Assembly (NCBI GenBank): GCA_045591405.1
Contig: JAZNST010000051.1
Location: 15,571-79,570 of the forward strand
DNA length: 64,000 nucleotides
Source of the DNA: Ruminiclostridium sp.
Lineage (GTDB): Bacteria > Bacillota > Clostridia > Oscillospirales > Ruminococcaceae
Direction of reading: 5' to 3'
Made by a program: the position numbers and the translations under genes. Of the stretch, positions 6,847-50,330 are shown one piece after another; position 1 is the first letter of the stretch; every line of letters starts with the position of its first letter. The notes under the pieces are model-generated. The model searched no databases and was not told the origin of the DNA. It was given only the letters and a program-made list of their open reading frames with translations.

Positions 6847-6934
6847 ATCCTTCTCCTGTCATTTTTCTTGAATTTTTCAATATAATTTATATGCCTTAGT
6901 GTCCACGTTATAACCTGTCAGAAAGAGAAGATTG

Positions 6935-23190: not shown

Positions 23191-23219
23191 TTGAAAAGTT
23201 TTATTTTTTGTGCTATAAT
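23191..23219 (+). promoter_or_regulatory. SigmaA-type promoter with extended -10
   Basis: TTGAAA (23191-23196), 17 nt, TGC-TATAAT (23211-23219). Confidence 0.5.
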
Positions 23220-23285
23220 GTTCATAACAATGAGAGAGGAAGTGAGAATATAAAAGTTTCAATCATTGATAACAGTCTTGTAAAT

Positions 23286-24191
23286 ATGGGAAGATCGACG
23301 ACTGCAAACGAAGAAATATTCAAGGATTACGTCATTTCTCTTTTCAGATGCGGAGTTGATTATATCGAAATTGACGGTCGCTTTGCTGATCTTACAAAAA
23401 CTATTGACACCTCACGCCACTTTATTTTTAACGTCCAGTTCCCCACAGACGTTTCTTACATAAACGAAAAAGCTTTTTCCTATGCGGTTTTACCGTTGAA
23501 TCTTCTTTTTATTGCTCCTGCAATAAGAAACACAAGAATAATAGTTGAGCTTAATACTGACAGAATTCCTGTTGAAGAGCTTATAGACCGTCTTTATGAT
23601 AATTATGCGCTTAAATACGCTTCTATGCTGAGAATAACAGGAAGCTTTTCCGATAAGCTCGACGAGCTTAAAAGGTTTATTTATGAGTTTCGTCATAAGT
23701 TTGCCGTTCCTATTGATATTTGTCCGCTTGATACAAATCTCGACGGTCTTGACGCCGCTTTTTGTGCTTATATGAACGGTTCTGACGCTTTGACGCTTTC
23801 CTTTGGCGAAACAAACTGTTATACGTCGCTCGAAAAATTCCTGATATATCTTCATGTCTATTACAGAAAGATAATCTCAAACGAATACGTGAAGGGGCTG
23901 TGTGCCGCGGCGCTTGATTGCAGCGTTTTGTCAAGTCGTTTTGAGCGAGGAGTAAAAAATCTGAGCGAGGTTGTTATTGCTCAGTCGGACAGAGTTATGA
24001 ATATTGACTTCCCTCAGAAATCTTCGACGGTACGAACAAAAAAAGGAACAAAGAGAGATGGCTCGTCGGTGAATATTTCCAACGAGCTCAGAACTGAGCT
24101 TCTTAGCGTAATTTCCGACAGTAAGCTAGACCTCGTAAACGACGAGGAAGCAAAAAAATTCCAGAAGAAAATTGAAAAAATCCTGTCATAA
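23286..24191 (+). CDS. Hypothetical protein; start uncertain, the frame is open from 23208
   Basis: Long ORF followed by a terminator. The track start TTG 23208 lies under the predicted -10 box. ATG 23286 is the first canonical in-frame start after the predicted TSS. An SD (GAGAGAGGAAG, 23231-23241) instead faces an in-frame ATA at 23250. The motif IIDNSLVNMGRS...VDYIEID faintly recalls DRE-TIM/HMGL-like barrels. Confidence 0.45.
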   Translation: MGRSTTANEEIFKDYVISLFRCGVDYIEIDGRFADLTKTIDTSRHFIFNVQFPTDVSYINEKAFSYAVLPLNLLFIAPAIRNTRIIVELNTDRIPVEELIDRLYDNYALKYASMLRITGSFSDKLDELKRFIYEFRHKFAVPIDICPLDTNLDGLDAAFCAYMNGSDALTLSFGETNCYTSLEKFLIYLHVYYRKIISNEYVKGLCAAALDCSVLSSRFERGVKNLSEVVIAQSDRVMNIDFPQKSSTVRTKKGTKRDGSSVNISNELRTELLSVISDSKLDLVNDEEAKKFQKKIEKILS

Positions 24192-28157: not shown

Positions 28158-28247
28158 TGGCGGAGAACAAGGGATTCGAACCCTCGCGCCGGTTTCCCGA
28201 CCTACTCCCTTAGCAGGGGAGCCCCTTCACCACTTGGGTAATTCTCC
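28158..28247 (-). tRNA. tRNA-Ser (anticodon GCT), type II, CCA encoded
   Basis: Reverse complement is GGAGAATTACCCAAGTGGTGAAGGGGCTCCCCTGCTAAGGGAG...GGTTCGAATCCCTTGTTCTCCGCCA. It has a CTGCTAA anticodon loop and a long variable arm. Confidence 0.9.
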
Positions 28248-28273
28248 AAAATGCTGAATTATGAGTATTAAAT

Positions 28274-28362
28274 TGGCGGAGTAGGTGGGATTCGAACCCA
28301 CGGTCCCTTGCGGGATCACTGGTTTTCAAGACCAGCTCCTTAAACCACTCGGACACCACTCC
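28274..28362 (-). tRNA. tRNA-Ser (anticodon TGA), type II, CCA encoded
   Basis: Reverse complement is GGAGTGGTGTCCGAGTGGTTTAAGGAGCTGGTCTTGAAAACCAG...GGTTCGAATCCCACCTACTCCGCCA. It has a CTTGAAA anticodon loop. Confidence 0.9.
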
Positions 28363-28377
28363 GTTTATTGCTTTTAG

Positions 28378-28406
28378 ATTATAGCACATTAAAAAAGAAA
28401 TGTCAA
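28378..28406 (-). promoter_or_regulatory. Consensus sigmaA promoter (extended -10) for the tRNA-Ser pair
   Basis: On the minus strand, TTGACA, 17 nt (ending TGC), TATAAT, 15 nt upstream of the tRNA 5' end. Confidence 0.65.
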
Positions 28407-28948: not shown

Positions 28949-28976
28949 GGGTGGCAAATAACGCCGCCCTTTTTTG
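28949..28976 (+). terminator. Intrinsic terminator after bofA
   Basis: GGGTGGC/GCCGCCC hairpin (one G-U) followed by TTTTTTG. Confidence 0.65.
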
Positions 28977-29005
28977 TGCATTGTGTAACAATAATCAATC
29001 TGTTA

Positions 29006-29034
29006 TTGAAAATTTTTTATAAATATGCTATACT
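29006..29034 (+). promoter_or_regulatory. SigmaA-type promoter (extended -10) of the DRTGG/ATPase/hydrogenase-like cluster
   Basis: TTGAAA, 17 nt (ending TGC), TATACT. Confidence 0.55.
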
Positions 29035-29090
29035 ATATAAAATAATAAGCGGGCATTGCCCAAAACCTATTTGAAGGATTCGGTGATTAT

Positions 29091-29444
29091 ATGACTATCA
29101 ACGACATTAAAAATTTACTTGAAGCGACTGTTCTTTGCGGAGAAGAACGAATTGACGACGAGGTAAGAAGCGCCTGCGGTTCTGATATGATGAGCGACGT
29201 ACTTGCTTACGTAAAGGATCAGGCTGTGCTCCTTACGGGACTTTTGAACCCACAGGTTGTAAGAACGGCTGAAATGATGGACATTATCTGCATCGTTTTT
29301 GTCAGAGGAAAAACCCCCGACGAAGCTGTTATAACGCTTGCAAAGGAAATGAACATTGCGGTTCTTTCTACCCCAATGCGTATGTTTGAAGCGTGCGGTG
29401 TTCTTTATTCAAGCGGTCTGAAAGGAGGAAAAGTCAAATCATGA
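29091..29444 (+). CDS. DRTGG domain protein
   Basis: 117 aa with MMSDVLA...AVLLTGL...IVFVRGK...A pattern typical of stand-alone DRTGG proteins. Confidence 0.7.
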   Translation: MTINDIKNLLEATVLCGEERIDDEVRSACGSDMMSDVLAYVKDQAVLLTGLLNPQVVRTAEMMDIICIVFVRGKTPDEAVITLAKEMNIAVLSTPMRMFEACGVLYSSGLKGGKVKS

Positions 29445-29863
29445 ATCCCATAACACTCAGATATGAAGTTCCGGGAGACGACTTCACTCGTGCAGGAGAA
29501 GCTAGCTCTGCAATCAAGAATAAGCTCAAGCAAATGGGTGTTTCTCCTTCCGTAATAAGAAACGTTGCTATTGCAACCTATGAGGGTGAAATAAATACCG
29601 TCATTCACGCAAACGGCGGCGAAATAATTGTTACAATCGACGCTGAATCGGTAACAATCGTTATCAAAGACACGGGAAAAGGTATTCCCGATATCAATCT
29701 TGCAATGCAAGAAGGCTATACAACAGCCCCCGACGACGTTCGTTCGCTCGGCTTCGGCGCAGGAATGGGACTTCCTAATATGAAAAAATATTCGGACGAA
29801 TTTGATATTCAGTCAACAGTCGGATTAGGAACAACTGTTACAATGAAAATCTATATCCGTTGA
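29441..29863 (+). CDS. GHKL-type ATPase, anti-sigma regulatory factor (SpoIIAB-like Ser/Thr kinase) family
   Basis: ATG 29441 overlaps the upstream stop (ATGA). DTGKGIPD and GFGAGMGLPNM ATP-lid motifs, ~140 aa. Confidence 0.75.
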   Translation: MNPITLRYEVPGDDFTRAGEASSAIKNKLKQMGVSPSVIRNVAIATYEGEINTVIHANGGEIIVTIDAESVTIVIKDTGKGIPDINLAMQEGYTTAPDDVRSLGFGAGMGLPNMKKYSDEFDIQSTVGLGTTVTMKIYIR

Positions 29864-29881
29864 TTTGAGAAAGGAAATGAA

Positions 29882-31174
29882 ATGGATACCTTCTTCCACT
29901 CTGTTTATCTTAATTCAGATTTATGCAAGGGATGTATAAATTGCCTCAAACGCTGTCCTACTCAGGCAATCAGAGTGAGAAACGGAAAAGCGCAGATAAT
30001 TAAGGAATTTTGTATTGATTGCGGCGAATGTATAAGAATTTGTCCTCATCACGCAAAAAAGGCTACATACGACCCTCTCGATATACTCAATAAATACGAA
30101 TACAAGGTTGCTCTTCCCCCTCCGTCGCTCTACGCTCAATTCAATAATCTGGAAGAAAAAGAGCTTGTTCTTGCAGCTCTCAAAAAGTTCGGCTTTGACG
30201 ACGTTTTTGAGGTTGCAACAGCAGCGGAAATGGTCTCGGAAATGACCAGAAAGCTTATCACAGAAAGAGGCGTTGAGCTTCCGATTATTTCTTCTGCCTG
30301 CCCTTCTGTTGTAAGACTTATAAGAGTTCGTTTCCCAAATCTCATTGATAAGCTTTCGCCGCTGAACGTTCCTGCTGATCTGGCGGGCTCGCTTGCGCTT
30401 GAAAACGCAATGAAAAAAACAGGACTCGCTCGTGAAAAAATCGGAATTATCTTTATTACCCCCTGTCCTGCCAAAATGACGGCAATCAACGTACCGATAG
30501 GAAAAAGAAAGTCGGATATAAACGGCGTTATTGCAATGAGTGAAATCTACCCTCGTCTTCTTCCGCTTATGAAAGAAATCTACGAAAACGATGAAGTTGA
30601 GGCTCTTACTAAGGATATTTCCCTTTCGGGAAAAATTGGTGTGAGCTGGGGACGAAGCGGCGGCGAAGCAGGTGGAGTAATAAGAGACAACTACCTTGCC
30701 GCAGACGGAATTGAAAACGTAATACGAGTTCTTGAGGATCTTGAGGACGATAAGCTTTCAAATCTTGAATTTATTGAGCTTAATGCTTGTTCAGGCGGCT
30801 GTGTCGGCGGAGTTCTTGCAGTTGAAAATCCATATCTTGCCAAAGTAAAGCTCAATATTTTAAGAAAATATCTTCCCGTTTCAGGCTCTCATCTTGAAGA
30901 TACAATTCCAAAGGAGTCGTTCCTTGATCAGAAGATTGAATATATGCCCGTTTACAGATTAAGCGATGATTTTGAGGAATCTATTGCTATGATGCAAAAG
31001 GTAGAAGAAATCACGGAAAGACTTCCGGGGCTTGATTGCGGCTGCTGTGGCGCACCGACGTGCCGTGCGCTCGCCGAGGACGTAGTAAGAGGTCAGGCTT
31101 CTGAAAAGGACTGTATTCATATTCTTCGTAAGTTCATTCATCAGATTTCTGACGAAATGAGTAAAATCAATTAA
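29882..31174 (+). CDS. [FeFe]-hydrogenase large-subunit-like Fe-S protein (2x 4Fe-4S ferredoxin + H-domain-like core + C-terminal Fe-S domain)
   Basis: CKGCINCLKRCP and CIDCGECIRICP ferredoxin motifs. H-cluster-like motifs SSACP (aa 137-141), TPCPAK (192-197) and ELNACSGGCVGG (299-310). C-terminal CGCCGAPTCRALAEDV. Confidence 0.8.
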   Translation: MDTFFHSVYLNSDLCKGCINCLKRCPTQAIRVRNGKAQIIKEFCIDCGECIRICPHHAKKATYDPLDILNKYEYKVALPPPSLYAQFNNLEEKELVLAALKKFGFDDVFEVATAAEMVSEMTRKLITERGVELPIISSACPSVVRLIRVRFPNLIDKLSPLNVPADLAGSLALENAMKKTGLAREKIGIIFITPCPAKMTAINVPIGKRKSDINGVIAMSEIYPRLLPLMKEIYENDEVEALTKDISLSGKIGVSWGRSGGEAGGVIRDNYLAADGIENVIRVLEDLEDDKLSNLEFIELNACSGGCVGGVLAVENPYLAKVKLNILRKYLPVSGSHLEDTIPKESFLDQKIEYMPVYRLSDDFEESIAMMQKVEEITERLPGLDCGCCGAPTCRALAEDVVRGQASEKDCIHILRKFIHQISDEMSKIN

Positions 31175-31186
31175 TAGAGGCTTATT

Positions 31187-31516
31187 ATGACTGTAAAAGA
31201 TTTAGTATGTGAAAACGACTTCGTATCTCTTTGCGAGGCGGATTTTACCCGTGAAATTTCTTGCATTTACTGCTGTGATTTGTTAAGCGTTGTTATGGGA
31301 AAAGCTCCTCAGGGCTGTGCTTGGGTTACGGTTATGGGAAATCTTAACGCCGCTGCCGTTGCCGCATTAGCGGACATCAGCGTTATAATTCTCGCTGACG
31401 GAAGCGCAATTGATGATAAAATGCTCGAAAAAGCAAAGGAGCAAGGAATAAACGTGCTTAAAACAGCGCTTCCGATTTATGAAGCGGCGGCGATTATAGG
31501 TGAAAAATTAAAATGA
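31187..31516 (+). CDS. DRTGG domain protein (second copy)
   Basis: 109 aa with LLSVVMG...WVTVMGN...VIILADG pattern. Confidence 0.65.
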   Translation: MTVKDLVCENDFVSLCEADFTREISCIYCCDLLSVVMGKAPQGCAWVTVMGNLNAAAVAALADISVIILADGSAIDDKMLEKAKEQGINVLKTALPIYEAAAIIGEKLK

Positions 31517-32232
31517 TTGAATTAAGCTACGATTTACACGTTCACTCTTGCCTCTCCCCTTGCGGCGACGACGAGTCAACCCCCGCAAATATCGCCATGC
31601 TTTCACAGCTTCTTGGGCTTGATGTTGTTGCAATCACCGACCACAGTAGCTGTAAAAACTGTCCCGCTTTTTTTGAAGCGGCTGAGGCTGTGGGGATAGT
31701 GCCGATTGCGGGAATGGAGCTTACAACGGAGGAAGAAATCCACGTGCTCTGTCTTTTTCCTGAGCTTTCTGCGGCTATGGAATTTGACGCAGAGGTTCAC
31801 GAAGCGCTTTTTCCGATAAAAAACGATCCTGAAATATACGGAAATCAGCTAATTGTGAACTCTGACGATGAAGTAATAGGCAAAGAAGAAATCTGCCTTA
31901 TAAACGCTACTTCTATCGGGATTTATGACTTGAACGCAAAGGTTCGCGCTCTTGGAGGGATTATAATCCCCGCCCACATTGACAGAAGCGCATTCAGCAT
32001 CATTTCATCGCTTGGTACGCTACCCGACGACTGCGGCTTCAACTGTGTTGAAATCAAATATCCCGAAGCTGAAAATAACCTCAAAGAAAAATATCCCTAT
32101 ATTTCAAAATGCAACGTCATTTACGATTCCGACGCTCACAGGCTTGAAAATTTATCGCTTGGAAACCATAAGCTTTTGGCTGAGGAAAAAACAGCACAGG
32201 CAGTGCTTAAAGCCCTTGACGCAAAAATATAA
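31513..32232 (+). CDS. PHP-domain phosphoesterase
   Basis: DLHVHSCLSPCGD and ITDHSS metal-binding motifs. ATGA overlap with the upstream gene. Confidence 0.75.
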   Translation: MIELSYDLHVHSCLSPCGDDESTPANIAMLSQLLGLDVVAITDHSSCKNCPAFFEAAEAVGIVPIAGMELTTEEEIHVLCLFPELSAAMEFDAEVHEALFPIKNDPEIYGNQLIVNSDDEVIGKEEICLINATSIGIYDLNAKVRALGGIIIPAHIDRSAFSIISSLGTLPDDCGFNCVEIKYPEAENNLKEKYPYISKCNVIYDSDAHRLENLSLGNHKLLAEEKTAQAVLKALDAKI

Positions 32233-32237
32233 CAACA

Positions 32238-32276
32238 AATCCCACAAAGAACGGTACTTTGTGGGATTTTTCCTTT
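32238..32276 (+). terminator. Intrinsic terminator ending the five-gene cluster
   Basis: AAATCCCACAAAG/CTTTGTGGGATTT hairpin followed by TTCCTTTT. Confidence 0.75.
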
Positions 32277-32280
32277 TCAA

Positions 32281-32312
32281 AACAAAAAGCGCTTGTGATT
32301 TCTCACAGGCGC
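32281..32312 (-). terminator. Intrinsic terminator after divIC
   Basis: On the minus strand, GCGCCTGTGA/TCACAAGCGC hairpin followed by TTTTTGTT. Confidence 0.6.
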
Positions 32313-32325
32313 CATATTTATCATT

Positions 32326-32649
32326 TTATTGTGGTATGAAGTAGTAAATCGTTTCATCGGGATAAGAATAGTCAAGCTGATCTCGTGCAATCTGCTCGAT
32401 ATATTCCATTCTGTTTTCATCTATGCTATAACGCTCAAGCTGTGCGTTTTTAGCGTTAAGCTCAGCAACGGTTTTAGTAAGAGTCTCATAGTGAGCGTTT
32501 TTCTGAGTAATTTCAACCTGCATTGAAACAAGTGAAATAAAACCGACAAGAACAATCGCAAGAACAATTATATAGAACAAAAAAGACTTACGTTTTTTTG
32601 GTGATGATACGAGCTTTGACTGCATTCTTGTTTTCACTTCCTTCAACAT
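32326..32649 (-). CDS. divIC: Septum formation initiator FtsB/DivIC family protein
   Basis: Single TM segment plus coiled coil (AELNAKNAQLERY) and C-terminal DYSYPDE. ATG 32649 has GGAG 5 nt upstream and overlaps the yabQ end. yabP-yabQ-divIC synteny. Confidence 0.65.
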   Translation of the reverse strand: MLKEVKTRMQSKLVSSPKKRKSFLFYIIVLAIVLVGFISLVSMQVEITQKNAHYETLTKTVAELNAKNAQLERYSIDENRMEYIEQIARDQLDYSYPDETIYYFIPQ

Positions 32650-33154
32650 TATTGCTCCGTTTGTTATTATACACCAAACTGTATCGCTTTTGCAATAGTT
32701 TTTTTGATAAAACAATGGGTTTGGTTAAAAAATTGTAGATTATTACAAATTGTAATTTGAATTTCTGTCTAATAAAGACAAAAAACCTTCTTGAATACTT
32801 ATGTGTAAATGCAAAAAAACGCCTTAAAATACGCCTAAGGAGAACAATCGTATGCTTTGAAATAAGATAAATTAATTTACCAAGAGTAAAATGATAAAGA
32901 ATAAAACCGATTGCCTCGAAGAAAACGTAATATAATCTGAAATATCCGCCGCCAACAGATAAAGCGACGATAAAGCTGACTATTGCGCTGACTGACGCAA
33001 AAAGACAGTCTTCAATTGTAACTGCGAGCGTATTATGGCGTATAAGAAGCCTTATAAAGCGAAAAAATTCGTATAATAATCCAAGAGCCGCACCAAGAAT
33101 CAAAAAATATCCGCCCAAAACCAGCGTCTGTGAAATCGTCTCAAACATAGGCAA
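32588..33154 (-). CDS. yabQ: Spore cortex biosynthesis protein YabQ
   Basis: Membrane protein with a YabQ-like N-terminus (GAALGLLYEFFRFIR), directly after yabP. The start is either TTG 33154 or ATG 33148. Confidence 0.6.
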   Translation of the reverse strand: MPMFETISQTLVLGGYFLILGAALGLLYEFFRFIRLLIRHNTLAVTIEDCLFASVSAIVSFIVALSVGGGYFRLYYVFFEAIGFILYHFTLGKLIYLISKHTIVLLRRILRRFFAFTHKYSRRFFVFIRQKFKLQFVIIYNFLTKPIVLSKKLLQKRYSLVYNNKRSNNVEGSENKNAVKARIITKKT

Positions 33155-33433
33155 TCACTTAAACAGCTTCGTTATGAAATTACGTGGACTTTTTTCCTTA
33201 CCCGACGAATAGCAGAAGGAATTAACGCAACCTGTCATAATAAGCTCGCCTGACGAAATATCTGTTTTTTCTATATGAAGCTCCCTGCCCTTGATTGTAA
33301 GCTCGCCAAGCTCAGTAAAAAGAATAATCTGAACGTCGGTAAAATCCTCGACCTCTTTTACGCCCGACATTACTACCCTGCTCCTGTTTTCCATTACAAA
33401 GCTGTGCATATTCTGAGATAAGCTTTTTTCCAT
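33155..33433 (-). CDS. yabP: Sporulation protein YabP
   Basis: 92 aa, VMSGVKEVEDFTDVQIILFTELGELTIKGRELHI, YabP/YqfC family. Confidence 0.8.
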   Translation of the reverse strand: MEKSLSQNMHSFVMENRSRVVMSGVKEVEDFTDVQIILFTELGELTIKGRELHIEKTDISSGELIMTGCVNSFCYSSGKEKSPRNFITKLFK

Positions 33434-33435
33434 AA

Positions 33436-33469
33436 AAACACCCCCTGCATCTGAATTATATGCAAGGGG
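33436..33469 (-). terminator. Hairpin/terminator between yabO and yabP
   Basis: On the minus strand, CCCCTTGCAT/ATGCAGGGGG (one bulge) followed by TGTTTTT. Confidence 0.5.
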
Positions 33470-33487
33470 TATTATTTTAAGTACAAG

Positions 33488-33727
33488 TCAGACAACCTCG
33501 TATAAATCGGCGCTTCCTTCTTTTCCGACAACCTCAGCTACCTTTACAACTCTGACCTTCAACGGATTTTTTCCCATATTTATTTCAATCACGTCGTTAA
33601 CTTTAACGTCGTAGGAGGCTCTTGCCGCCTTTCCGTTAACAAAAATCTTTTCAGCATCACACGCCTCGTTTGCAACCGTTCTTCTTTTTATGAGGCGTGA
33701 AACCTTGAGATACTTGTCCAATCTCAT
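33488..33727 (-). CDS. yabO: S4-domain RNA-binding protein (YabO/RqcP, Hsp15-like)
   Basis: MRLDKYLKVSRLIKRRTVA S4 motif. ATG 33727 has AAAGGAA upstream. The track start is TTG 33751. Confidence 0.8.
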   Translation of the reverse strand: MRLDKYLKVSRLIKRRTVANEACDAEKIFVNGKAARASYDVKVNDVIEINMGKNPLKVRVVKVAEVVGKEGSADLYEVV

Positions 33728-33799
33728 ATTACATTTCCTTTCAAACGCCAAAAGCAGATTTTTCCGCCGTAAATTATACGGCGGTCTGCAATCAGCGGA

Positions 33800-34075
33800 T
33801 TATTCTTCTACCGCTTTCTTGAGCGCTGTGCCTGCTCTGAATGCAGGTACTTTTCCTGCAGGAATAATAATTCTTTCCTGAGTCTGAGGATTAACACCGT
33901 TCTTTTGTGCTCTGGATCTTACTTCAAACGTTCCAAAGCCGACAAGCTGAACCTTTTCTCCGTTTGCAAGAGATTCGGTAACGCTATCAATAAACGCTGA
34001 GAGCGCCTTTTCGCTGTCTTTTTTTGTCAGCCCTGTCTTTTCCGCTATCTGTGCAATAAGCTCCGTTTTAATCAT
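33800..34075 (-). CDS. hup: DNA-binding protein HU
   Basis: 91 aa with GFGTFEVRSRA...NPQT...IPAGKVPAFRAG. Confidence 0.95.
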   Translation of the reverse strand: MIKTELIAQIAEKTGLTKKDSEKALSAFIDSVTESLANGEKVQLVGFGTFEVRSRAQKNGVNPQTQERIIIPAGKVPAFRAGTALKKAVEE

Positions 34076-34090
34076 TGTCGTTCCTCGCTT

Positions 34091-34888
34091 TCAATTTTTC
34101 TTGACCTCAAGCCAAATATCGTTAAGCTCGTCAGCAGAAAGCTCGTCAATGCGTTTGTTCATTGAAAGAACACGCTCCTCCAGCTTTCTAAAACGCATTA
34201 TAAACTTATTGATAGCCATTGTCAAGGCTTTTTCGGCGTCAATTTTCAAAAATCTCGACAGGTTGCAACAAGAAAACAGTATATCACCGAATTCTTCTTC
34301 AATATTCGACTGATTGTCCTCTTTTATCGCTTGCTCAAGCTCGGCAATTTCTGATTTTAGGCTTTTGAGAACCTCAGCTGTATCAGAAAAATCAAAGCCG
34401 ACGTTCCCTGCTCTTTTTCCTACCTTCGCACCTCTCATAAGGGACGGAAGGAGCTTCGGTACGCTTTCGAGACGCTCTGTTGCAGTTTCTTCTCCCTTTG
34501 ATTTGCTTTTAAGCATATCCCAGTTTTTGAGTACCTGTTCAGTTGTATCAGCTTTTATATCGCCAAAAACGTGAGGATGACGATAAATAAGCTTTTTACA
34601 AATTCCGTCGCAAACGCTGTCGAAATCGAAACTATCAACCTCAATTTCAAGCTGAGTATGAAACACAACCTGTAAAAGCAAATCGCCAAGCTCCTCTTTG
34701 AGCATTTCTGAATTTTCAGCGTCAATAGCCTCCATAACCTCATACGCTTCTTCAAGTAAATCCATACGAATGGAATGATGGTCCTGTTCCTTATCCCACG
34801 AACAACCGTTTTCGCTTCTGAGAATTTTTACTATATTCAGTAAATCATAAATATCATAGCTTTCCTTTACAGGATAAACCTCGCTCAT
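34091..34888 (-). CDS. mazG: Nucleoside triphosphate pyrophosphohydrolase MazG (YabN-like)
   Basis: Tandem MazG domains (EEAYEVMEAID, EEFGDILFS). ATG 34888 has AAGGAAG upstream. Confidence 0.85.
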   Translation of the reverse strand: MSEVYPVKESYDIYDLLNIVKILRSENGCSWDKEQDHHSIRMDLLEEAYEVMEAIDAENSEMLKEELGDLLLQVVFHTQLEIEVDSFDFDSVCDGICKKLIYRHPHVFGDIKADTTEQVLKNWDMLKSKSKGEETATERLESVPKLLPSLMRGAKVGKRAGNVGFDFSDTAEVLKSLKSEIAELEQAIKEDNQSNIEEEFGDILFSCCNLSRFLKIDAEKALTMAINKFIMRFRKLEERVLSMNKRIDELSADELNDIWLEVKKN

Positions 34889-34928
34889 TATCTGCACTTC
34901 CTTTTCTTTTTTATAAATCTATTCTACA

Positions 34929-36602
34929 CTATCCCCGTCTTTTTTTCAAGCCAAAACGCACTTTTTTAATAAGTGATAAAGTCTGCTTTTTGAAAAGAAA
35001 AGCGATTGCAACAAGATAAACGCCGCCAAAAGCGCAAGCAGAAAACGCAAGCCTGAAAAACAACGGAAGCTCTTTTAACAAAACGTAGCAGGACGTTCCT
35101 CCGCAAACTACCGCGATAACGCTTGCAACAAGCGCCAGGACGCCGCACGAGCTGATGTGAAGCGAGAATCCAAGCGATTTTCTTAACGAGTGAAAGCCGA
35201 CGATTGCCGCAAGCGAATAAGAAATTACCGTTGAAATAGCGGCGGCTTCAACCGAAACGGACGGTATTTTTATAAGGAGAATATTTCCTATAAGCTTAAC
35301 GCCTGAAATAAAAAGCATAAGCTTTATTGGAATATAGGATTTGTCTATTGCTTGAAAAATCGCTGAAAAAGCGGAAATAAGAGACACTCCGAAGCCCCCA
35401 AAGCCCATTATCAAAAGAGACTTTGCGGCAATTTCAACCTCGGCAACCTTCGACGGATATAATAGCTCAAGAATTGGCTTGCTGAACGTTCCGAGAAAAA
35501 AGCAAAGCGGAATCCCAAGCAAGAAAACGCCTGTAAACATTGACTTTATACATTTGGATAGCTTTTTTCTATTCCCACACTCCCAAAGCGAAGCAATTTT
35601 TGGAAGAGCGCTTTTTCCGATGAGCGCAGTAAGCGAGGTCGTAAGCATAAAGAGCGTCAGAACTATCCCTGAGTAACTTCCGTAAACAAAGGTTCCAAAG
35701 TCAGAAGGCGCAACCGTCGAAAAAACCGCCCGACCGTATCTTTGAGAGAAGAATGACGGGTTTGTGTAAAGACAGGCTGTAATTCCACTTGGAATTGTAA
35801 GTAAATCCAGAAAAGAATTTATGTTGATTACGATTGAATTTATTGAAATCGGGAGAGCCTGAAGAAGTATGCTTTTATAGATTTTCCTTCTTCTCGGAGG
35901 GACTGTGTTATCGTATAAAAGGTCGTTTTTTGTTATTCCGTCTCCCTTTATTTTGTTCCTTGCAATAAGAAAAACCGTTCCCGAAAGCTCGCCGAGCGTT
36001 ATTCCGAGAATAGCCGCCGCTGCCGCATAAGGAAGAAGCTCCTCAAAGGAGTAACCCATTGACGAAAAATACGAAACTGCGAAATTAGCAAGAAAAAGTC
36101 CTGCTACTGCCTTTATAAGAGCCTCAATGACCTGAGAAAAGGAGGTCGGAATCATATCTGAGAGTCCCTCGTAATACGCCTTGATTCCCCCTGCAATACA
36201 GCAAAAAAGAACCTGAGGCGCAATCAAATAAACTCCGATAATGCTTTGAGAAGACGAGGCAATAATGTTACAAAAAGGAACAGAAACTGCATAAACGGCT
36301 ATTGTTCCAATTGTGCCTGTAAAAATTGTCATTCTGATTGCAGCGGATTTGACGGCTTTAACCGTCCGAAATCGACCACAACCGAGATTCTGAGCTGTAA
36401 GTCTTGTTATGGCAATGGGAATACCCGCCGAAAGAAACGAATAAACAGGCATATAAAGGCTGATTGCTGTTGAGTAATAGCCCATTCCGACGCCGCCCAG
36501 AATGTTTCCGAGGGGGATTTTGAGAACTGCGCCGAGAATTTTGGCTATTGTCATAGCAAAAAATAAGATGACGGTATTTTTTATAAGACTTTTTTGCTTC
36601 AT
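34929..36602 (-). CDS. MOP-superfamily flippase (YabM/SpoVB/MurJ-like polysaccharide biosynthesis protein)
   Basis: 557 aa, about 14 TM segments. Adjacent to mazG as yabM is in B. subtilis. Confidence 0.75.
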   Translation of the reverse strand: MKQKSLIKNTVILFFAMTIAKILGAVLKIPLGNILGGVGMGYYSTAISLYMPVYSFLSAGIPIAITRLTAQNLGCGRFRTVKAVKSAAIRMTIFTGTIGTIAVYAVSVPFCNIIASSSQSIIGVYLIAPQVLFCCIAGGIKAYYEGLSDMIPTSFSQVIEALIKAVAGLFLANFAVSYFSSMGYSFEELLPYAAAAAILGITLGELSGTVFLIARNKIKGDGITKNDLLYDNTVPPRRRKIYKSILLQALPISINSIVININSFLDLLTIPSGITACLYTNPSFFSQRYGRAVFSTVAPSDFGTFVYGSYSGIVLTLFMLTTSLTALIGKSALPKIASLWECGNRKKLSKCIKSMFTGVFLLGIPLCFFLGTFSKPILELLYPSKVAEVEIAAKSLLIMGFGGFGVSLISAFSAIFQAIDKSYIPIKLMLFISGVKLIGNILLIKIPSVSVEAAAISTVISYSLAAIVGFHSLRKSLGFSLHISSCGVLALVASVIAVVCGGTSCYVLLKELPLFFRLAFSACAFGGVYLVAIAFLFKKQTLSLIKKVRFGLKKRRG

Positions 36603-36617
36603 CTGCTTCTCCTTGCC

Positions 36618-36653
36618 AAAAAAATAGTGTCACTCGATTTTATTGTGACAAGC
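36618..36653 (+). repeat. Direct repeat unit A (AAAAAAATAGTGTC...GACAAGC) in the flippase/spoIIGA intergenic region
   Basis: Shares AAAAAAATAG-GTC and GACAAGC blocks with unit B. It also contains the inverted pair TGTCAC...GTGACA. Confidence 0.5.
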
Positions 36654-36738
36654 CTTGAAATATGACAAGTTGGCATCTGTGGCTAAAAACGCATAAAATG
36701 GCGTTTTATGAAAAATAACATCATCTTATTTTTTACCG

Positions 36739-36770
36739 AAAAAAATAGCGTCGTATTATTTTCGACAAGC
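36739..36770 (+). repeat. Direct repeat unit B (AAAAAAATAGCGTC...TTCGACAAGC)
   Basis: Second copy of the motif. It contains TTCGACA (36761-36767), the reverse complement of the Spo0A box TGTCGAA. Confidence 0.5.
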
Positions 36771-36794
36771 TTTTCAACCCTGACAGGCTATACT
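36761..36794 (+). promoter_or_regulatory. Candidate Spo0A-activated spoIIG promoter (0A box / -35-like TCGACA, 21-nt spacer, TATACT)
   Basis: TTCGACA at 36761-36767 and TATACT at 36789-36794, 17 nt upstream of the spoIIGA GTG. The over-long spacer resembles the B. subtilis spoIIG promoter. Confidence 0.4.
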
Positions 36795-36811
36795 TATATG
36801 GGTGATGTCTT

Positions 36812-37633
36812 GTGATTGTTTATCTTGACGTTTTATTTCTTGTGAATGTTTATATTACATATTTTCTGCTCAGAGGAACTGCCTGTGCGCTTCATTGGAA
36901 AGGAAAAAACCTTCGTTTTTTGTCGGCGGCGGCTCTTGGAGGGGGATCATCTTTTTTTATTTTTCTTCCTGAGCTTAATTTTGTTTTTATCACGCTTATA
37001 AAGGCGGGGCTGGCGTGTTTGATTTCGGGAGTTGCTTTTGGCTTTTCCCGTAACGGCTTTCTCAAACGCACAGGCGTGTTCTTTTTACTGAGCGTAGCTC
37101 TTGCCGGAGCTGTAATCCTTATCCGTACGCTTTTAGAACCGCCGAATTTACTTACTAACAACGGCTTTACATATATAGACGTTTCTGCTGTTCTTTTACT
37201 TATTTCAACAATAATCGCCTACTTTTTACTCAGAGTAATAAGAATTTTTCTTGATAAGCGTGATTACAACGATAAGAAATACTCGGTTACAATAAGGAAA
37301 GACGGTTCAGAGGTTAAGGGAGAGGCTCTTTCAGATACAGGAAACTCCTTAGTTGATTATTTCAGCGGTGTTCCTGTGATAGTCTGCGAAGCCGCATTTT
37401 TAAGTTCTATTTTTCCCGATGCAACCAAAAGCGACGTCTTATCGGGGAAATTCAGATTAGTCCCCTTTTCTACCGTGAACGGAAGCGGACTTTTACCTGT
37501 TGCAAAAGCAGACGAAATAATCATAAGCTGGGAGGGTAACGAAAAAAAGGTAAACGCTCTTGTCGGGATTTCTGACGGAGAGCTGAAAAACAGCGAATAC
37601 AAAGCGATATTCAATCCGAAATTACTTAACTGA
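36812..37633 (+). CDS. spoIIGA: Sigma-E processing peptidase SpoIIGA
   Basis: N-terminal membrane domain (YLDVLFLVN...) and aspartic protease motif SDTGNSLVD. Immediately upstream of sigE. Confidence 0.85.
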   Translation: MIVYLDVLFLVNVYITYFLLRGTACALHWKGKNLRFLSAAALGGGSSFFIFLPELNFVFITLIKAGLACLISGVAFGFSRNGFLKRTGVFFLLSVALAGAVILIRTLLEPPNLLTNNGFTYIDVSAVLLLISTIIAYFLLRVIRIFLDKRDYNDKKYSVTIRKDGSEVKGEALSDTGNSLVDYFSGVPVIVCEAAFLSSIFPDATKSDVLSGKFRLVPFSTVNGSGLLPVAKADEIIISWEGNEKKVNALVGISDGELKNSEYKAIFNPKLLN

Positions 37634-37645
37634 AAGGAGAAGTTT

Positions 37646-38344
37646 ATGAAACTTATTGAAAAAATATTGATGAAGCTTTTCGGAAGAAAAGCTCAGCTTC
37701 ATTATATAAACGGTTCTGATACTCTCCCTCCTCCACTGACTAAGCAAGAGGAGGAAAAGGCGTTTGAGCTTATGAAAACCAATCACGAAAAGGCTCGTGA
37801 GCTACTTATAATACATAATCTGAGGCTTGTGGTTTATATTGCAAAAAGGTTTGAATCAACGGGAATAGGCATCGAAGACCTTATTTCTATCGGAACGATA
37901 GGCCTTATAAAGGCAGTAAACACCTTCAGCGTTGAAAAGAACATCAAGCTTGCAACCTACGCTTCAAGGTGCATTGAAAACGAAATCCTTATGTTTCTCA
38001 GAAAGTCAAATCAATATAAATTTGAAATTTCAATAGACGAGCCGCTTAACGTGGATTGGGACGGAAATGAGCTTTTGCTCTCAGATATTCTTGGGACAGA
38101 AAGCGACACGGTAAACGTAAATATTGAAAGCGAGGTAGAGAAAAAAATACTTCTAAGGCTTGTTTCCGAGCTTGACCCACGAGAAAGACTGATAATGAAA
38201 ATGCGCTTTGGGCTTGACAACGGAAAAGAAAGAACACAGAAAGAGGTTGCCGATGAAATAGGAATTTCACAAAGCTATATCTCACGGCTCGAAAAGAAAA
38301 TAATAAGACAGCTTAAAAAAGATTTGGAGCAGCTTTGCGGCTGA
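37646..38344 (+). CDS. sigE: RNA polymerase sporulation sigma factor SigE (pro-sigma-E)
   Basis: Pro-sequence [15 protein letters not shown]..., region 2 [13 protein letters not shown], region 4 [22 protein letters not shown]. Confidence 0.9.
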
Positions 38345-38361
38345 TTTGAAAAAAATACCAC

Positions 38362-38389
38362 GCATAAAAAAATCACTCCTGACAATACT
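38362..38389 (+). promoter_or_regulatory. Possible forespore (sigmaF/sigmaG-type) promoter for sigG
   Basis: GCATA (38362-38366), 16 nt, CAATACT (38383-38389). This is only a loose by-eye match to GCATR/CAnAnTA consensus elements. Confidence 0.3.
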
Positions 38390-38419
38390 TTTCTTAAAGA
38401 AAAGTCGGGAAGTGATAAC

Positions 38420-39190
38420 GTGTACTACAACAAGGTTGAAATAAGCGGCGTAAACACATCGAAGCTCAAAGTGCTGAAAGAATCGGAAAAGCTTGAGCTT
38501 TTGAAAAAAGTGAGAAACGGAGATATGCAAGCACGCGAGGAGCTTATAAAAGGCAATCTGCGACTCGTGCTCAGCGTAATACAGCGTTTTGCAGGGCGAG
38601 GCGAAAATCCCGACGATTTGTTTCAGGTAGGCTGTATCGGGCTTATGAAAGCAATCGACAACTTTGACGTAACGCTTGACGTAAAATTCAGCACCTACGG
38701 AGTTCCGATGATAATTGGCGAAGTGAGGCGCTTTCTTCGTGACAATACTTCAATAAGAGTAAGCCGTTCTATGAGAGACTTAGCGTATAAGGCGATGCAA
38801 GCAAAAGAAAAGCTCACAAACGAGCGACAGGAAGAGCCGACGATTGAGGATATTGCAAAGGAAATAGACGTTCCAAGAAGCGATATTGTTCTTGCTCTTG
38901 AGGCAATAGGCGAGCCTGCCTCCTTATATGATCCGATTTTCTCCGAATCGGGAGACACAATTTATATAATGGATCAGATCGGAGACAAAAACGACGATAT
39001 GAACTGGCTTAATGAAATTGCACTCAAGGACGCAATCGTAGGTCTTGGTCAACGTGAAAAGCGAATTTTATCGCTTAGATTTTTCCAGGGAAAAACACAG
39101 GTTGAGGTTGCACAGGAAATAGGAATAAGTCAGGCTCAAGTATCAAGGCTTGAAAAAGGAGCGCTTAATAAAATAAAAAAAGAAATATAA
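38420..39190 (+). CDS. sigG: RNA polymerase sporulation sigma factor SigG
   Basis: GTG start. KVEISGVNTSKLKVL, LRLVLSVIQRF, FSTYGVPMIIGEVRRFLRD and QVEVAQEIGISQAQVSRLE motifs. Confidence 0.9.
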   Translation: MYYNKVEISGVNTSKLKVLKESEKLELLKKVRNGDMQAREELIKGNLRLVLSVIQRFAGRGENPDDLFQVGCIGLMKAIDNFDVTLDVKFSTYGVPMIIGEVRRFLRDNTSIRVSRSMRDLAYKAMQAKEKLTNERQEEPTIEDIAKEIDVPRSDIVLALEAIGEPASLYDPIFSESGDTIYIMDQIGDKNDDMNWLNEIALKDAIVGLGQREKRILSLRFFQGKTQVEVAQEIGISQAQVSRLEKGALNKIKKEI

Positions 39191-39288: not shown

Positions 39289-40482
39289 TTACTCTGTCGT
39301 GTAGTTATCGAAATAACCCTGAATGAACACGATAGGAGTTCCCTTATCGCCCGAACCTGACGTAAGGTCGCAAAGTGAACCGATAAGGTCAGTAAGCTGT
39401 CTTGGAGTTGTTCCTTCAGAAACCATCTGACCTACAAGGTTAGAATCCTTTTCCTGAATCTTTGTCTTAATAGCTTCTTTAAGAGCATCGCCCGAAAGGT
39501 CAGAGAAGTCGTTGTCAGCAAGATACTTGAGCTTAAGCTCGTTCGGTGTTCCTTCGAGTCCCGGTGTGTACGCAGGGGAAACAACAGGGTCAGGAAGCTC
39601 CCAAATTTTTCCTACGGGGTCCTTAAAGGCGCCGTCGCCGTAAACCATAACTTCAATATTCTTTCCTGTTGCTTCCTTGAGCTTCTTTGCGATAGCGTCA
39701 ACAACAGGCTGACAATCTCTTGGGAAAAGCTTTACGCTGTCTTCGGTTGACTTATTTGAGCCTAAAAGACCGTAGTTTTCGTTGTATCCGCTTCCGTTTA
39801 CGGGTGCATTAAGAATCTCATCAAGGCCAAACACTTTTTCAGCGCCTGCTGCTTTAAGAATACGCTTTGTTCTTGCACGAGTGTGAATATCACAGCAAAG
39901 AACGTTCTTTGTATAATCAAGAACAGCCTTCGGGTTATTTGCGAAAATAATTTCACATTCAGCACCTGCTTCACGAATCAGTTGCTGATAATACTCAACG
40001 TAATCAACGCCTGTGAATCTATGTTTTTCATAGCCGAAAAGCTCACGATATTTTTCAAGAGAGAGAACGTCTGTGTAGGGATTAACGCCCTTTTCGTCAA
40101 GTAAATCAAGACTTACAAGGTGGTTACCAACCTCGTCGGAGGGGTAAGAAAGCATAAGAACGATTTTCTTTGCTCCCATTGCGATACCCCTGAGGCAAAT
40201 TGCAAAACGGTTACGGCTAAGAATCGGGAAAATAACTCCGACTGTTTCTCCGCCGAACTTTGCCTTTACGTCCTGAGCGATGTCATCGACTTTAGCGTAG
40301 TTCCCCTGCGCTCTTGCAACGATTGCTTCTGTCATAGCAACGATGTCTCTGTCGTTGAATTTGAAGCCATCATCCTTTGAAGCTTCGAGAACTGACGATG
40401 TTACGATTTCGACAATATCATCGCCTTTTCTGATAATTGGGGGTCTGACGCCTCTTGAAACGGTACCGATTGTACGGCTCAT
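39289..40482 (-). CDS. CofE-like (F420-0:gamma-glutamyl ligase fold) family protein of unknown substrate
   Basis: IIRKGDDIVEIV...DRDIVAMTEAIVARAQG resembles the CofE N-terminal signature, in a ~400-aa architecture seen in Firmicutes. ATG 40482 has AAGGAG 9 nt upstream. Confidence 0.5.
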   Translation of the reverse strand: MSRTIGTVSRGVRPPIIRKGDDIVEIVTSSVLEASKDDGFKFNDRDIVAMTEAIVARAQGNYAKVDDIAQDVKAKFGGETVGVIFPILSRNRFAICLRGIAMGAKKIVLMLSYPSDEVGNHLVSLDLLDEKGVNPYTDVLSLEKYRELFGYEKHRFTGVDYVEYYQQLIREAGAECEIIFANNPKAVLDYTKNVLCCDIHTRARTKRILKAAGAEKVFGLDEILNAPVNGSGYNENYGLLGSNKSTEDSVKLFPRDCQPVVDAIAKKLKEATGKNIEVMVYGDGAFKDPVGKIWELPDPVVSPAYTPGLEGTPNELKLKYLADNDFSDLSGDALKEAIKTKIQEKDSNLVGQMVSEGTTPRQLTDLIGSLCDLTSGSGDKGTPIVFIQGYFDNYTTE

Positions 40483-40637
40483 AATGAACACTCCTTATTT
40501 TTAGAATGACTTTGCGCTTATACGCCATTAATCACAAGGTACATTTTAGCATACTTTTTTTCGTTTTTCAATAGAAAATATTAATTTTTTTTTGAATTCG
40601 CAAAAATATTATGCCCGAAAGCTCTCAGCATATATAA

Positions 40638-48854: not shown

Positions 48855-50330
48855 ATGAAATCACTTGTTCTCACCGAAAGTCTGGTGCTTGATAACAAAG
48901 AAATCCATCTCGTGAGCGTTACAGGAAGCACGGGAGGCCTTGGAATCTGCGATACCACGCGCGACAAGCGCCAAGGAAAGAGAGAAACCTTTTTTGTCGG
49001 TTCAGAAGCGATATTGAACATCCTTCAGAAAAGCTATAAGGATGATTATTCAAATAAAATTATATGGCAGGTAAGCTCAACTGAAAAATGCGGAGATTTT
49101 CAGTCTAAAATCCAGCTTATGTGCGACGATTATTTTATCAAGAGTAAGCCTATGCTCGCTTCGGTTATGCCGTTGCTCAATATTCTCAAAAACGGAGTTT
49201 ATGCAGTTTATGAAAACGACCTGATACAAACTGACGGTTCAAGTAATTTTTTCTGGAACTCCTACCTCGTAGGTCACGAGTTTGTCGGCTCAGGAACATA
49301 CAGTAGCACCTGCGGAAAGCAACACAACTTGCCTCCCTGCTTCCTTATCCCGACAGATAATCTTCAGGCTTATTCTGAGGTGATGATAAGAAACGAGGAT
49401 AAAAGATACGCCGCAGGAGGCGAAACGGGAGGTATTGCCTTTCACATTTCAGGACTGTTCTGCGCTCTGCTCAGTAACCATAACGCCGCAACCTCAGCCC
49501 TAATACGAGGTCAGAAGCTCAAGTGCATAGTTATCGAGCCAATCAGAAACATTATGTTCAAGGAGGAATTTGAACAGCCCGGTGAAACAACCGCAGGAAA
49601 CAGCAAAATGCCGTACTACGAGGTTGACTGTCTTTATACTCACCCGTTAAAAATCCCTGTTACAAACGTTTCTTCTCCTATTCTTGAAAATTTCTTTACA
49701 ACAAGATACACAGATATTCCTCAGAGCTTTAATACTATAAGACAAAGCTCTGAAAGAACTACCAAGCTCAAAAACAAACGTGCAATACCAAGACCCATCC
49801 TTGATAAGTGCGAGGCAATGCCCGACGCTGAAATGATACAGTCAGCGGCAATCATTGACGAGCTTTCAGACCTTGAGCTTCAGGCGCTTCTTGAGGGCAA
49901 AACAGAGCTTAACGAAAAGATTATCATAAGCAAAAACTACTACTCAAGCGTTGTAAACGCCCTCAACTATCTTCAGTACAAGAATTATAACAGCTTTATT
50001 TCTTTTGCAACGGCAATTCTTAAAAACGAGGACCTCACCGCCGTTCACCTTTATGTTGCAAACAGGCTTCAGAGCGTTATGAACGAGGAGGTTTTTGCAA
50101 CCTTCAATGAAATTTTCCTTAGCGAAAGCCCTGTTTACGCTCCGCTTTCGTCGCTTGCCGAAAAATATAAGAAGCACTATACGGCTCATCTTGACAGAAT
50201 GAAAAGAGAGCGTGAGAGTGATTCTCTCGAAGAAGAAAACGCAAATGCCGCCGTGCCTGTCTTCAGACGCAACACCGAACAGGAAATCAATGCTCTTGAT
50301 ATGGCGAAAAAGCTCAACTTCAAGAAATAA
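48855..50330 (+). CDS. Hypothetical protein, 491 aa, no family recognised
   Basis: Long ORF 19 nt after the upstream gene, with a GAAAGGAAA SD, followed by a hairpin. No motif I can assign. Confidence 0.6.
   Translation: MKSLVLTESLVLDNKEIHLVSVTGSTGGLGICDTTRDKRQGKRETFFVGSEAILNILQKSYKDDYSNKIIWQVSSTEKCGDFQSKIQLMCDDYFIKSKPMLASVMPLLNILKNGVYAVYENDLIQTDGSSNFFWNSYLVGHEFVGSGTYSSTCGKQHNLPPCFLIPTDNLQAYSEVMIRNEDKRYAAGGETGGIAFHISGLFCALLSNHNAATSALIRGQKLKCIVIEPIRNIMFKEEFEQPGETTAGNSKMPYYEVDCLYTHPLKIPVTNVSSPILENFFTTRYTDIPQSFNTIRQSSERTTKLKNKRAIPRPILDKCEAMPDAEMIQSAAIIDELSDLELQALLEGKTELNEKIIISKNYYSSVVNALNYLQYKNYNSFISFATAILKNEDLTAVHLYVANRLQSVMNEEVFATFNEIFLSESPVYAPLSSLAEKYKKHYTAHLDRMKRERESDSLEEENANAAVPVFRRNTEQEINALDMAKKLNFKK

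Follow-up and report, generated by a model that had tools for sequence, protein, structure and literature searches.

What does a [FeFe]-hydrogenase-like protein do when its gene lies between bofA and divIC, next to genes for two DRTGG proteins, a small ATPase and a phosphoesterase? The question is raised by a five-gene module at positions 29,006 to 32,276 of a 64,000-nucleotide (nt) stretch of Ruminiclostridium sp. DNA (assembly GCA_045591405.1, contig JAZNST010000051.1, positions 15,571 to 79,570 of the forward strand), referred to below as the window. Judged from its sequence, the 430-amino-acid (aa) product, hereafter HydS, belongs as a full [FeFe]-hydrogenase to group D (M2e), the class of TamHydS, and its H-cluster site is complete; its four neighbours make up the usual accessory set of that class. 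The class itself is known; the window locus is a minority genomic arrangement of it and, as far as sequence comparison can tell, a further member. The module and its predicted signals are laid out as follows.

29091–29444, + strand: DRTGG protein 1, 117 aa (open reading frame (ORF) and Pfam match)
29441–29863, + strand: SpoIIAB-like ATPase of the GHKL type and putative Ser-Thr kinase, 140 aa when counted from the ATG at 29441
29882–31174, + strand: HydS-type group D (M2e) putative sensory [FeFe]-hydrogenase, 430 aa
31187–31516, + strand: DRTGG protein 2, divergent paralogue of protein 1, 109 aa
31513–32232, + strand: PHP-family metal-dependent phosphoesterase, 239 aa
29006–29034, + strand: predicted promoter-like TTGAAA–17 nt–TATACT with a TG extension, 57 nt 5' of gene 1
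32237–32269, both strands: bidirectional terminator-like hairpin that separates the PHP gene from the convergent divIC

A preliminary description of this DNA had reported five tightly packed genes on one strand with their own promoter and terminator, and these points were confirmed. The genes are joined by ATGA overlaps at 29441 and 31513 and by intergenic gaps of 18 and 12 nt; the promoter-like site is sigma-70-like with an extended –10 element (10/12 match in a consensus scan), and the hairpin has a 13-bp stem with 5 GC pairs and a T-run on each strand. The product calls made at that stage (DRTGG, GHKL ATPase, Fe-S protein, DRTGG, PHP) were borne out by Pfam, NCBIfam and profile searches. 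The same holds for the flanks, which are DUF2508 (yaaL)-bofA upstream and divIC-yabQ-yabP-yabO-hbs-mazG followed by spoIIGA-sigE-sigG downstream, and for the absence of other hydrogenase or maturase genes from the window: a Pfam scan of its 30 large ORFs returned no radical-SAM, HydF-type, other hydrogenase or NuoE/F protein, and profile searches of all frames of the 64 kb gave no further match to HydA, NuoE, NuoF, the hydABC-type ATPase, the small 2Fe-2S protein or the hfs-type PP2C (SpoIIE/PP2C profile built from locus L005).

The assignment of HydS was based on its domains, its cluster ligands and two active-site substitutions. Pfam matches were obtained to a Fer4 dicluster (Fer4_10, 3e-10), to Fe_hyd_lg_C (5e-31) and, C-terminally, to the PF04060 FeS domain (1.6e-12); no PAS domain was matched. 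The cysteines of two N-terminal [4Fe-4S] sites (C15/C18/C21/C25 and C44/C47/C50/C54) are invariant. The H-cluster ligands C140, C195, C303 and C307 stand in the motifs SSAC140P, TPC195PAK and ELNAC303SGGC307VGG, which are invariant in 29 diverse homologues (31–76% identity) and in 86 close ones. A C-terminal Cx2Cx4Cx16C motif is formed by C386, C389, C394 and C411, and the protein stops 19 residues past the last of these. At the position of the proton-relay cysteine CpI-C299 HydS has Ala139, and at that of CpI-M353 it has Thr193; S[ST]AC and [ST]PC were found in all 86 close homologues, with the proton-relay cysteine replaced in every one. The traits given for M2e/group D enzymes are two N-terminal [4Fe-4S] sites, the C-terminal motif, no PAS domain, loss of CpI-C299 and replacement of CpI-M353 by Ser/Thr (Land et al. 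2020, PMC8163306). With TamHydS, HydS shares 45% identity over 316 aa (tblastn, E 4e-86); the target of this search was the published coding sequence, machine-read from the supplement with errors, and the assignment was made without a formal phylogeny. The term "[FeFe]-hydrogenase-like" used in the preliminary description thus named the right family and understated the case, the protein being a bona fide group D/M2e enzyme. That description had also set a hydrogenase served by maturases elsewhere against a regulatory module. A complete H-cluster site means that HydS has to rely on HydEFG maturases whose genes lie elsewhere; a full hydrogenase is what was found, yet this is compatible with a sensor role.

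Group D enzymes are termed "putative sensory" or "functionally undefined" in the literature, recent reviews included. TamHydS, from Thermoanaerobacter mathranii, interconverts H+ and H2 reversibly and shows sensor-like enzymology (Land et al. 2020, PMC8163306). The family is large: one search yielded more than 8,000 sequence clusters and another (E<1e-10) gave 2,444 representatives of clusters at 50% identity, and some other hydrogenase groups will be included in these counts. The sequence and fold matches in the PDB were all enzymes of group A, group B or the periplasmic type; structures from group C or D did not appear among them.

Conservation of the five-gene set was surveyed at two depths, with ORFs labelled by iterated profiles. 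In the first survey one genome per species was used (80 loci, HydS 53–66% identity, from Lachnospiraceae, Oscillospiraceae, Acutalibacteraceae, Ruminococcaceae and others), and DRTGG-ATPase-HydS-DRTGG-PHP was found in the same order and on the same strand in 79/80, the exception (L085) being devoid of the PHP gene. The second was seeded with distant homologues and gave 80 environmental loci, 54 of them with enough flank for scoring; the same five genes were present in 46 of these metagenome loci, alongside seven variants without PHP and one aberrant case. The co-occurrence that the preliminary description proposed to look for in a neighbourhood survey was thereby upheld, and the arrangement can be said to lie far beyond chance because order and strand recur in 79/80 species and 46/54 distant loci. 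Three departures were seen besides L085. The variants without PHP (L097, L098, L103, L105, L106, L122, L152) read DRTGG-DRTGG-ATPase-HydS with both DRTGG genes upstream, and continue into NuoE, a long NuoF (~590–790 aa stop-to-stop, where complete) and a very long HydA (~1,060–1,210 aa). A detached locus carries a second SpoIIAB-like ATPase gene (144 aa) directly 3' of PHP (L018:8443-8874). At L156:5627-7300 a HydS homologue is accompanied by a DRTGG gene only, and ATPase, second DRTGG and PHP genes do not occur within 6 kb on each side.

Gene fusions were found between module members and, further, with proteins of the electron-bifurcating hydABC operon. In the following list, HK185 denotes the 185-aa GHKL ATPase of that operon, a protein distinct from the 140-aa ATPase of the module, and p124 a small [2Fe-2S]-ferredoxin-like protein.

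HydS-DRTGG2: P0131, P0135, P0201, P0246, P0263, and by inspection P0174
DRTGG1-HydS: P0163, P0198
ATPase-HydS: P0160
DRTGG1-ATPase: L117, L123, L146
PHP-HK185: L125:1840-3213, L136:2863-4212, L157:5718-7019
HK185-p124: L160:4316-5239, L164:8972-9901

All of them are in-frame, with the family motifs intact on both sides, as judged from long representative proteins and locus ORFs. The AlphaFold2 (AF2) model of the HydS-DRTGG2 fusion P0131 had a mean predicted local distance difference test (pLDDT) of 93.1 and a predicted template modelling score (pTM) of 0.83, and the DRTGG domain, which follows a short linker, was also modelled confidently; a Foldseek search with this model gave ordinary [FeFe]-hydrogenases only, again with no group C or D structure among the matches. 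Fusions that link members pairwise indicate that the proteins work in physical contact, and the five proteins very probably assemble into one complex. Through the PHP-HK185 and HK185-p124 fusions the module is physically connected with hydABC-operon proteins. In the fusions DRTGG2 stands directly behind the C-terminal Fe-S domain of HydS, the place occupied by the PAS domain in group C.

The relation to hydABC was read from the same loci. Near the module this operon comprises NuoE-HK185-2Fe2S-NuoF-HydA. Of the species genomes, about 80% have it next to the module: in 50/80 loci the two are divergent, with a gap of about 230 bp in the median, in 13/80 the operon follows directly downstream in tandem, and in one it lies 3.6 kb upstream. 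From the available flanks of 16/80 loci it was absent, and eight of these had about 5–9.6 kb of flank on each side. In the distant loci it lies mostly in tandem, in one long co-directional string with the module. The preliminary description had given the gene set as interleaved with hydABC-type genes; the companionship is indeed the usual one, yet in the 160 loci inspected the genes are adjacent (divergent or tandem), not interleaved. Matches labelled NuoF or hydrogenase near the detached loci L065 and L073 proved to be RnfC and RnfB, and L073 was moved to the group without hydABC.

The idea that the module can exist detached from hydABC held for the window and for at least four other lineages. 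Relatives of the window lineage with 76% identity (including GCA_947630175.1) carry the same detached module behind yaaL-bofA and have only that side in common with the window. An isolate, Harryflintia acetispora DSM 100433, is another carrier of a detached module (L056); the module also occurs in C. thermocellum (Cthe_0335 region), T. mathranii and Caldicellulosiruptor bescii (Athe_1292 region). Detached loci occupy at least four separate places in the HydS tree, in Oscillospirales lineages, all with intact H-cluster motifs, and their flanks are unrelated from one lineage to the next (Rnf operon, tRNA synthetase, ABC transporter, patatin). No conserved additional partner or regulator was found in these flanks.

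The four partner proteins were characterised by profile, structure and alignment. DRTGG1 matches the Pfam DRTGG family (2.5e-9), and its profile matches the DRTGG protein AF_1212 (2ioj) and the DRTGG domain of a CBS-domain pyrophosphatase; D32, S35, D36, G50, N53, Q55, R58 and T59 are invariant in 47 orthologues. DRTGG2 scores below the Pfam cut-off (3.9e-5), and its paralogy was confirmed by profile (1e-39); its invariant residues are D31, S34, T48, N52 and N54. Both proteins have invariant D-x-x-S and T-x-x-x-N motifs. In the AF2 model these fall where strands end and helices begin, the edge at which an alpha/beta domain usually binds ligands or is modified. The 140-aa ATPase matches Pfam HATPase_c_2 (4.5e-13). 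Its best NCBIfam match is TIGR01925 spoIIAB, below cut-off (66.9 vs 135), and SpoIIAB structures are its sole sequence matches in the PDB. The N-box (E48, N52), G1 (DTGKG; D-x-G-x-G) and G2 (GFGAGMG) motifs of the Bergerat fold are kept in 83 orthologues, which points to the nucleotide binding assumed in the preliminary description. The PHP protein is a minimal 239-aa domain (Pfam PHP, 1.9e-10) in which all metal ligands (H9, H11, D43/H44, E69, H77, H155, D207, H209) and, in addition, a C13/C17 pair are invariant. Its AF2 model (pLDDT 96.3) was compared with Foldseek, and the closest folds were the EndoQ PHP domain, BAD_1165, RNase AM, TM0559 and Cv1693, with TM-scores up to 0.71 (normalised to query length).

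Set beside the described systems, the window HydS comes nearest to TamHydS. Both have two N-terminal [4Fe-4S] sites, the H-domain, the C-terminal Cx2Cx4Cx16C motif and no PAS domain; both have Ala for the proton-relay cysteine and a hydroxyl residue for CpI-M353; and in both cases the gene of a histidine-kinase-like ATPase is adjacent (PMC8163306). More generally, "protein kinases" or a "histidine kinase-like ATPase" have been noted next to M2e genes (literature including PMC8163306). No paper in the searchable literature was found to combine DRTGG with a hydrogenase in such a context. The window HydS differs from TamHydS in its host, a mesophilic bovine-gut Oscillospiraceae, in a gene that is not beside hydABC or an AraC regulator, and at the position of CpI-M497 (Asn in HydS, Leu in TamHydS); it is also known from sequence alone.

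Group C enzymes (M2f; TmHydS, R. albus HydS, HfsB of hfsABCD) resemble HydS in their N- and C-terminal Fe-S domains, in the loss of the proton-relay cysteine and in their link to Ser/Thr phospho-signalling genes and hydrogenase operons. They carry a fused PAS domain and a PP2C (SpoIIE-type) phosphatase, whereas in the window module a DRTGG protein that is separate, and elsewhere sometimes fused, stands with a SpoIIAB-like ATPase and PHP. Deletion of hfsB alters the fermentation balance (literature on hfsABCD). Within a few kb of module and hydABC at L005/L006, L021, L026, L028 and L037 an hfsABCD-like group C operon was seen (small NuoE-like, HydS-PAS, PP2C, group B hydrogenase); some genomes thus appear to hold both putative H2 sensors, group C and group D, at one locus.

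With the SpoIIAB-SpoIIAA-SpoIIE and RsbW-RsbV-RsbU systems the module shares a small stand-alone GHKL ATPase of the Ser-kinase type whose N, G1 and G2 boxes are intact; its companions are small alpha/beta proteins that bear an invariant Ser where a helix begins, and a metal-dependent phosphoesterase. Unlike them it has no STAS antagonist or PP2C phosphatase, no sigma factor was seen to accompany it, and its small partners are DRTGG proteins. It resembles SpoIIAB/RsbW partner switching and is not a member of that family, because STAS and PP2C proteins were looked for and are missing. We know of no instance in which phosphorylation of a DRTGG protein has been demonstrated. A functional analogy is offered by HoxBC with HoxJ/HoxA of Cupriavidus necator, in which a slow hydrogenase, complexed with a kinase, senses H2 and governs the expression of hydrogenase (PMC5707799). 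The metal centre and the proteins of that system are unrelated, and HoxJ, a histidine kinase of the PAS type, is paired with a response regulator; the module has no equivalent output protein. Finally, EndoQ, RNase AM (YciV/TrpH), BAD_1165, Cv1693 and TM0559 share the PHP barrel and the full metal-ligand set with the module PHP, which lacks the Zn-ribbon and C-terminal domains of EndoQ and the insertion of RNase AM and has the invariant C13/C17.

Starting from the conserved five-protein set, the pairwise fusions and the retained catalytic motifs, all of which were observed, we infer the rest of a mechanism. The module would be an H2- or redox-responsive, ATP-dependent HydS switch whose normal target is HydABC, reached in the window lineage in trans, a reading to which slightly better than even chances are given. 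HydS would shift its conformation when H2 is bound and slowly turned over at the H-cluster. Through the DRTGG proteins this shift would reach the SpoIIAB-like ATPase, which would then spend ATP, either by phosphorylating a conserved Ser/Thr on a DRTGG protein or by switching binding partners; the PHP phosphoesterase would reset the system. The target would normally be the electron-bifurcating HydABC. Its operon, the usual neighbour of the module, encodes another small GHKL ATPase, which in some loci forms a fusion with PHP. In the window lineage, a bovine-gut Oscillospiraceae, the module would have moved beside bofA/divIC and would act in trans on hydrogenase genes or proteins elsewhere.

Several observations weigh against this HydS switch. 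The PHP protein resembles nucleic-acid and nucleotide phosphoesterases more closely than protein phosphatases, to judge from profile and fold matches; CpsB/YwqE-type PHP protein phosphatases were absent from its Pfam, PDB-profile and Foldseek match lists. Seven of the 54 distant loci represent a natural variant from which PHP is missing. Neither in the module nor conserved in the flanks of detached loci was any STAS, PP2C, response-regulator or DNA-binding protein found. H2 does not reduce the C-terminal cluster in TamHydS (Schumann et al. 2026, PMC13104023), which speaks against a simple redox relay through that domain. For hydABC and hydEFG genes the analysis covered the 64-kb window. The preliminary description had suggested a phospho-relay or partner-switching module of experimentally unestablished role. 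The conserved unit and the ATPase motifs stood; the missing STAS and PP2C proteins, the nucleic-acid-type relatives of PHP and the variants without PHP count against the rest. As to the role, a recent paper still describes the interaction partners of the group D sensor as to be identified and names this a critical missing step (Schumann et al. 2026, PMC13104023).

Among the rival explanations, a machine that acts directly on HydABC has to be considered before the others, although it is rated unlikely. Here the module would be an ATP-dependent device for assembly, activation or conformational control, chaperone- or repair-like, with HydS as scaffold or redox-poising subunit. The chain of fusions does reach hydABC-operon proteins (PHP-HK185 and HK185-p124), HK185 also matches HATPase_c_3, a model of the MutL/Hsp90 type, no transcription factor is conserved nearby, and in distant loci a single long run of co-directional genes takes in both the module and hydABC. 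Against such a machine stand the anti-sigma Ser kinases as nearest relatives of the 140-aa ATPase, the intact module away from hydABC in several lineages and the sensor-like kinetics of TamHydS (PMC8163306); the solved HydABC complexes among the matches named HydABC only, and subunits of this kind were not listed. Still less likely, yet worth keeping in view, is small-nucleotide signalling, in which the messenger would be a nucleotide or dinucleotide, hydrolysed by PHP and received by the DRTGG proteins. The nearest relatives of PHP would suit this role (RNase AM, the AMP-binding 3',5'-bisphosphate phosphatase Cv1693, BAD_1165, EndoQ), conserved polar DRTGG residues lie where alpha/beta domains usually bind phosphate ligands, and the CBS-domain pyrophosphatase matched by the DRTGG1 profile, an enzyme regulated by nucleotides, contains a DRTGG domain. 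No nucleotide cyclase or synthetase is found in the module, however, a variant without PHP occurs, and no ligand of a DRTGG domain is known.

Two further readings were given very little weight. HydS might be a low-activity metabolic hydrogenase among unrelated passenger genes, which is highly improbable: reversible H+/H2 interconversion by TamHydS (PMC8163306) and the presence of every H-cluster ligand in HydS would agree with it, but neither an electron carrier nor a flavoprotein partner is part of the module, 86/86 sequences have another residue for the proton-relay cysteine, and five-gene synteny over about 126 loci together with six kinds of fusion excludes passengers. At the very bottom of the scale was placed a sporulation-linked anti-sigma partner-switching module. 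It is suggested by the position between bofA and divIC-yabQ-yabP near spoIIGA-sigE-sigG (sigE and sigG lie 5–7 kb from the module in the window, a neighbourhood that is not conserved) and by the anti-sigma-F factor as best structural relative of the ATPase. The location is lineage-specific, though, the 76%-identical relatives matching on the yaaL-bofA side only; other detached lineages have unrelated flanks, most genomes have the module at hydABC, and neither a STAS protein nor a sigma factor was seen to accompany it.

Transcription and context of the module were inspected in the window and across loci. The window sequence is present in bovine-gut and faecal metagenomes. Gut metatranscriptome contigs cover the module genes and bridge the DRTGG1/ATPase and DRTGG2/PHP junctions (one run, with DNA carry-over possible); they start 3' of the promoter-like site and end before the terminator region, with a depth of 0 over 32123–32524. 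Rfam gave no leader RNA or riboswitch and, upstream of the module, only two tRNA-Ser genes. Rex-box-like sites (TTGTTAAnnnnTTAACAA, <=3 mismatches) were found in 29/82 upstream regions (300 nt 5' of the first module gene, 82 loci), as against ~5 expected from shuffles. Among the genes in a published prediction of Rex sites for T. saccharolyticum is one for a "PHP domain protein" (Tsac_1856). In the window the only candidate operator, at 28974–28991, has 3 mismatches, is no better than chance and was rejected; the enrichment across loci is a lead, not a finding for the window. The GC content of the module (0.41–0.455) equals that of its flanks and lends no support to a recent horizontal insertion. 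An anti-phage defence system was also rejected, PADLOC having returned nothing but a Fer4-type chance match.

Some features of the window outside the module were recorded as well. A further GC-rich terminator-like hairpin (10-bp stem, 32289–32312) lies just past the bidirectional one, at the divIC 3' end. The region 32326–39190 is a conserved sporulation neighbourhood (divIC, yabQ, yabP, S4-domain yabO, hbs (HU), mazG, a spoVB/MurJ-like gene, spoIIGA-sigE-sigG), which confirms an endospore-forming Clostridia host and is unlinked to the module in other lineages. The two tRNA-Ser genes (anticodons GCT and TGA; 28158–28362, – strand) are flanked by a TetR-like gene and yaaL; a sigma-70 site that matches the consensus perfectly (12/12) is found at 28406–28378, and the region has a very high depth in metagenome and metatranscriptome alike. 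A 400-aa protein encoded at 39289–40491 (– strand) has a Pfam F420_ligase (CofE-like) match, which is unexpected in a gut Firmicute, and a 784-aa protein encoded at 56651–59005 (– strand) combines CotH kinase, chitobiase-C, Fn3-associated and lamin-tail domains. Long ORFs without a Pfam match at E<=1e-5 were noted at 6932–7957, 23208–24191, 48855–50330 and 53895–55211 (341, 327, 491 and 438 aa).

The value of these results lies in the partner set and the fusions exposed by comparison, not in any unusual composition of the window locus. The comparative data nominate partners for the group D sensor, namely two DRTGG proteins, a SpoIIAB-like ATPase and PHP, and via fusions HK185; the fusions also show where DRTGG2 is attached, after the C-terminal cluster domain where group C has its PAS domain. 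If DRTGG proteins serve as phospho-acceptors or switch partners of a SpoIIAB-like kinase, with reset by PHP and H2 sensing by group D, the module would be an undescribed type of partner switching. This is considered a serious if rather doubtful prospect; were it true, the persistence of the module far from hydABC in several gut Oscillospirales would mean that its output is a broader H2-dependent control of fermentation and not that of one operon. The detached module is a natural test of action in trans. Group D [FeFe]-hydrogenases are widespread among fermenting anaerobes, and H2 partial pressure steers the balance of acetate, ethanol and H2 in gut and rumen fermenters; an understanding of the sensor therefore bears on hydrogen and methane ecology in the rumen and on the engineering of biofuel strains.

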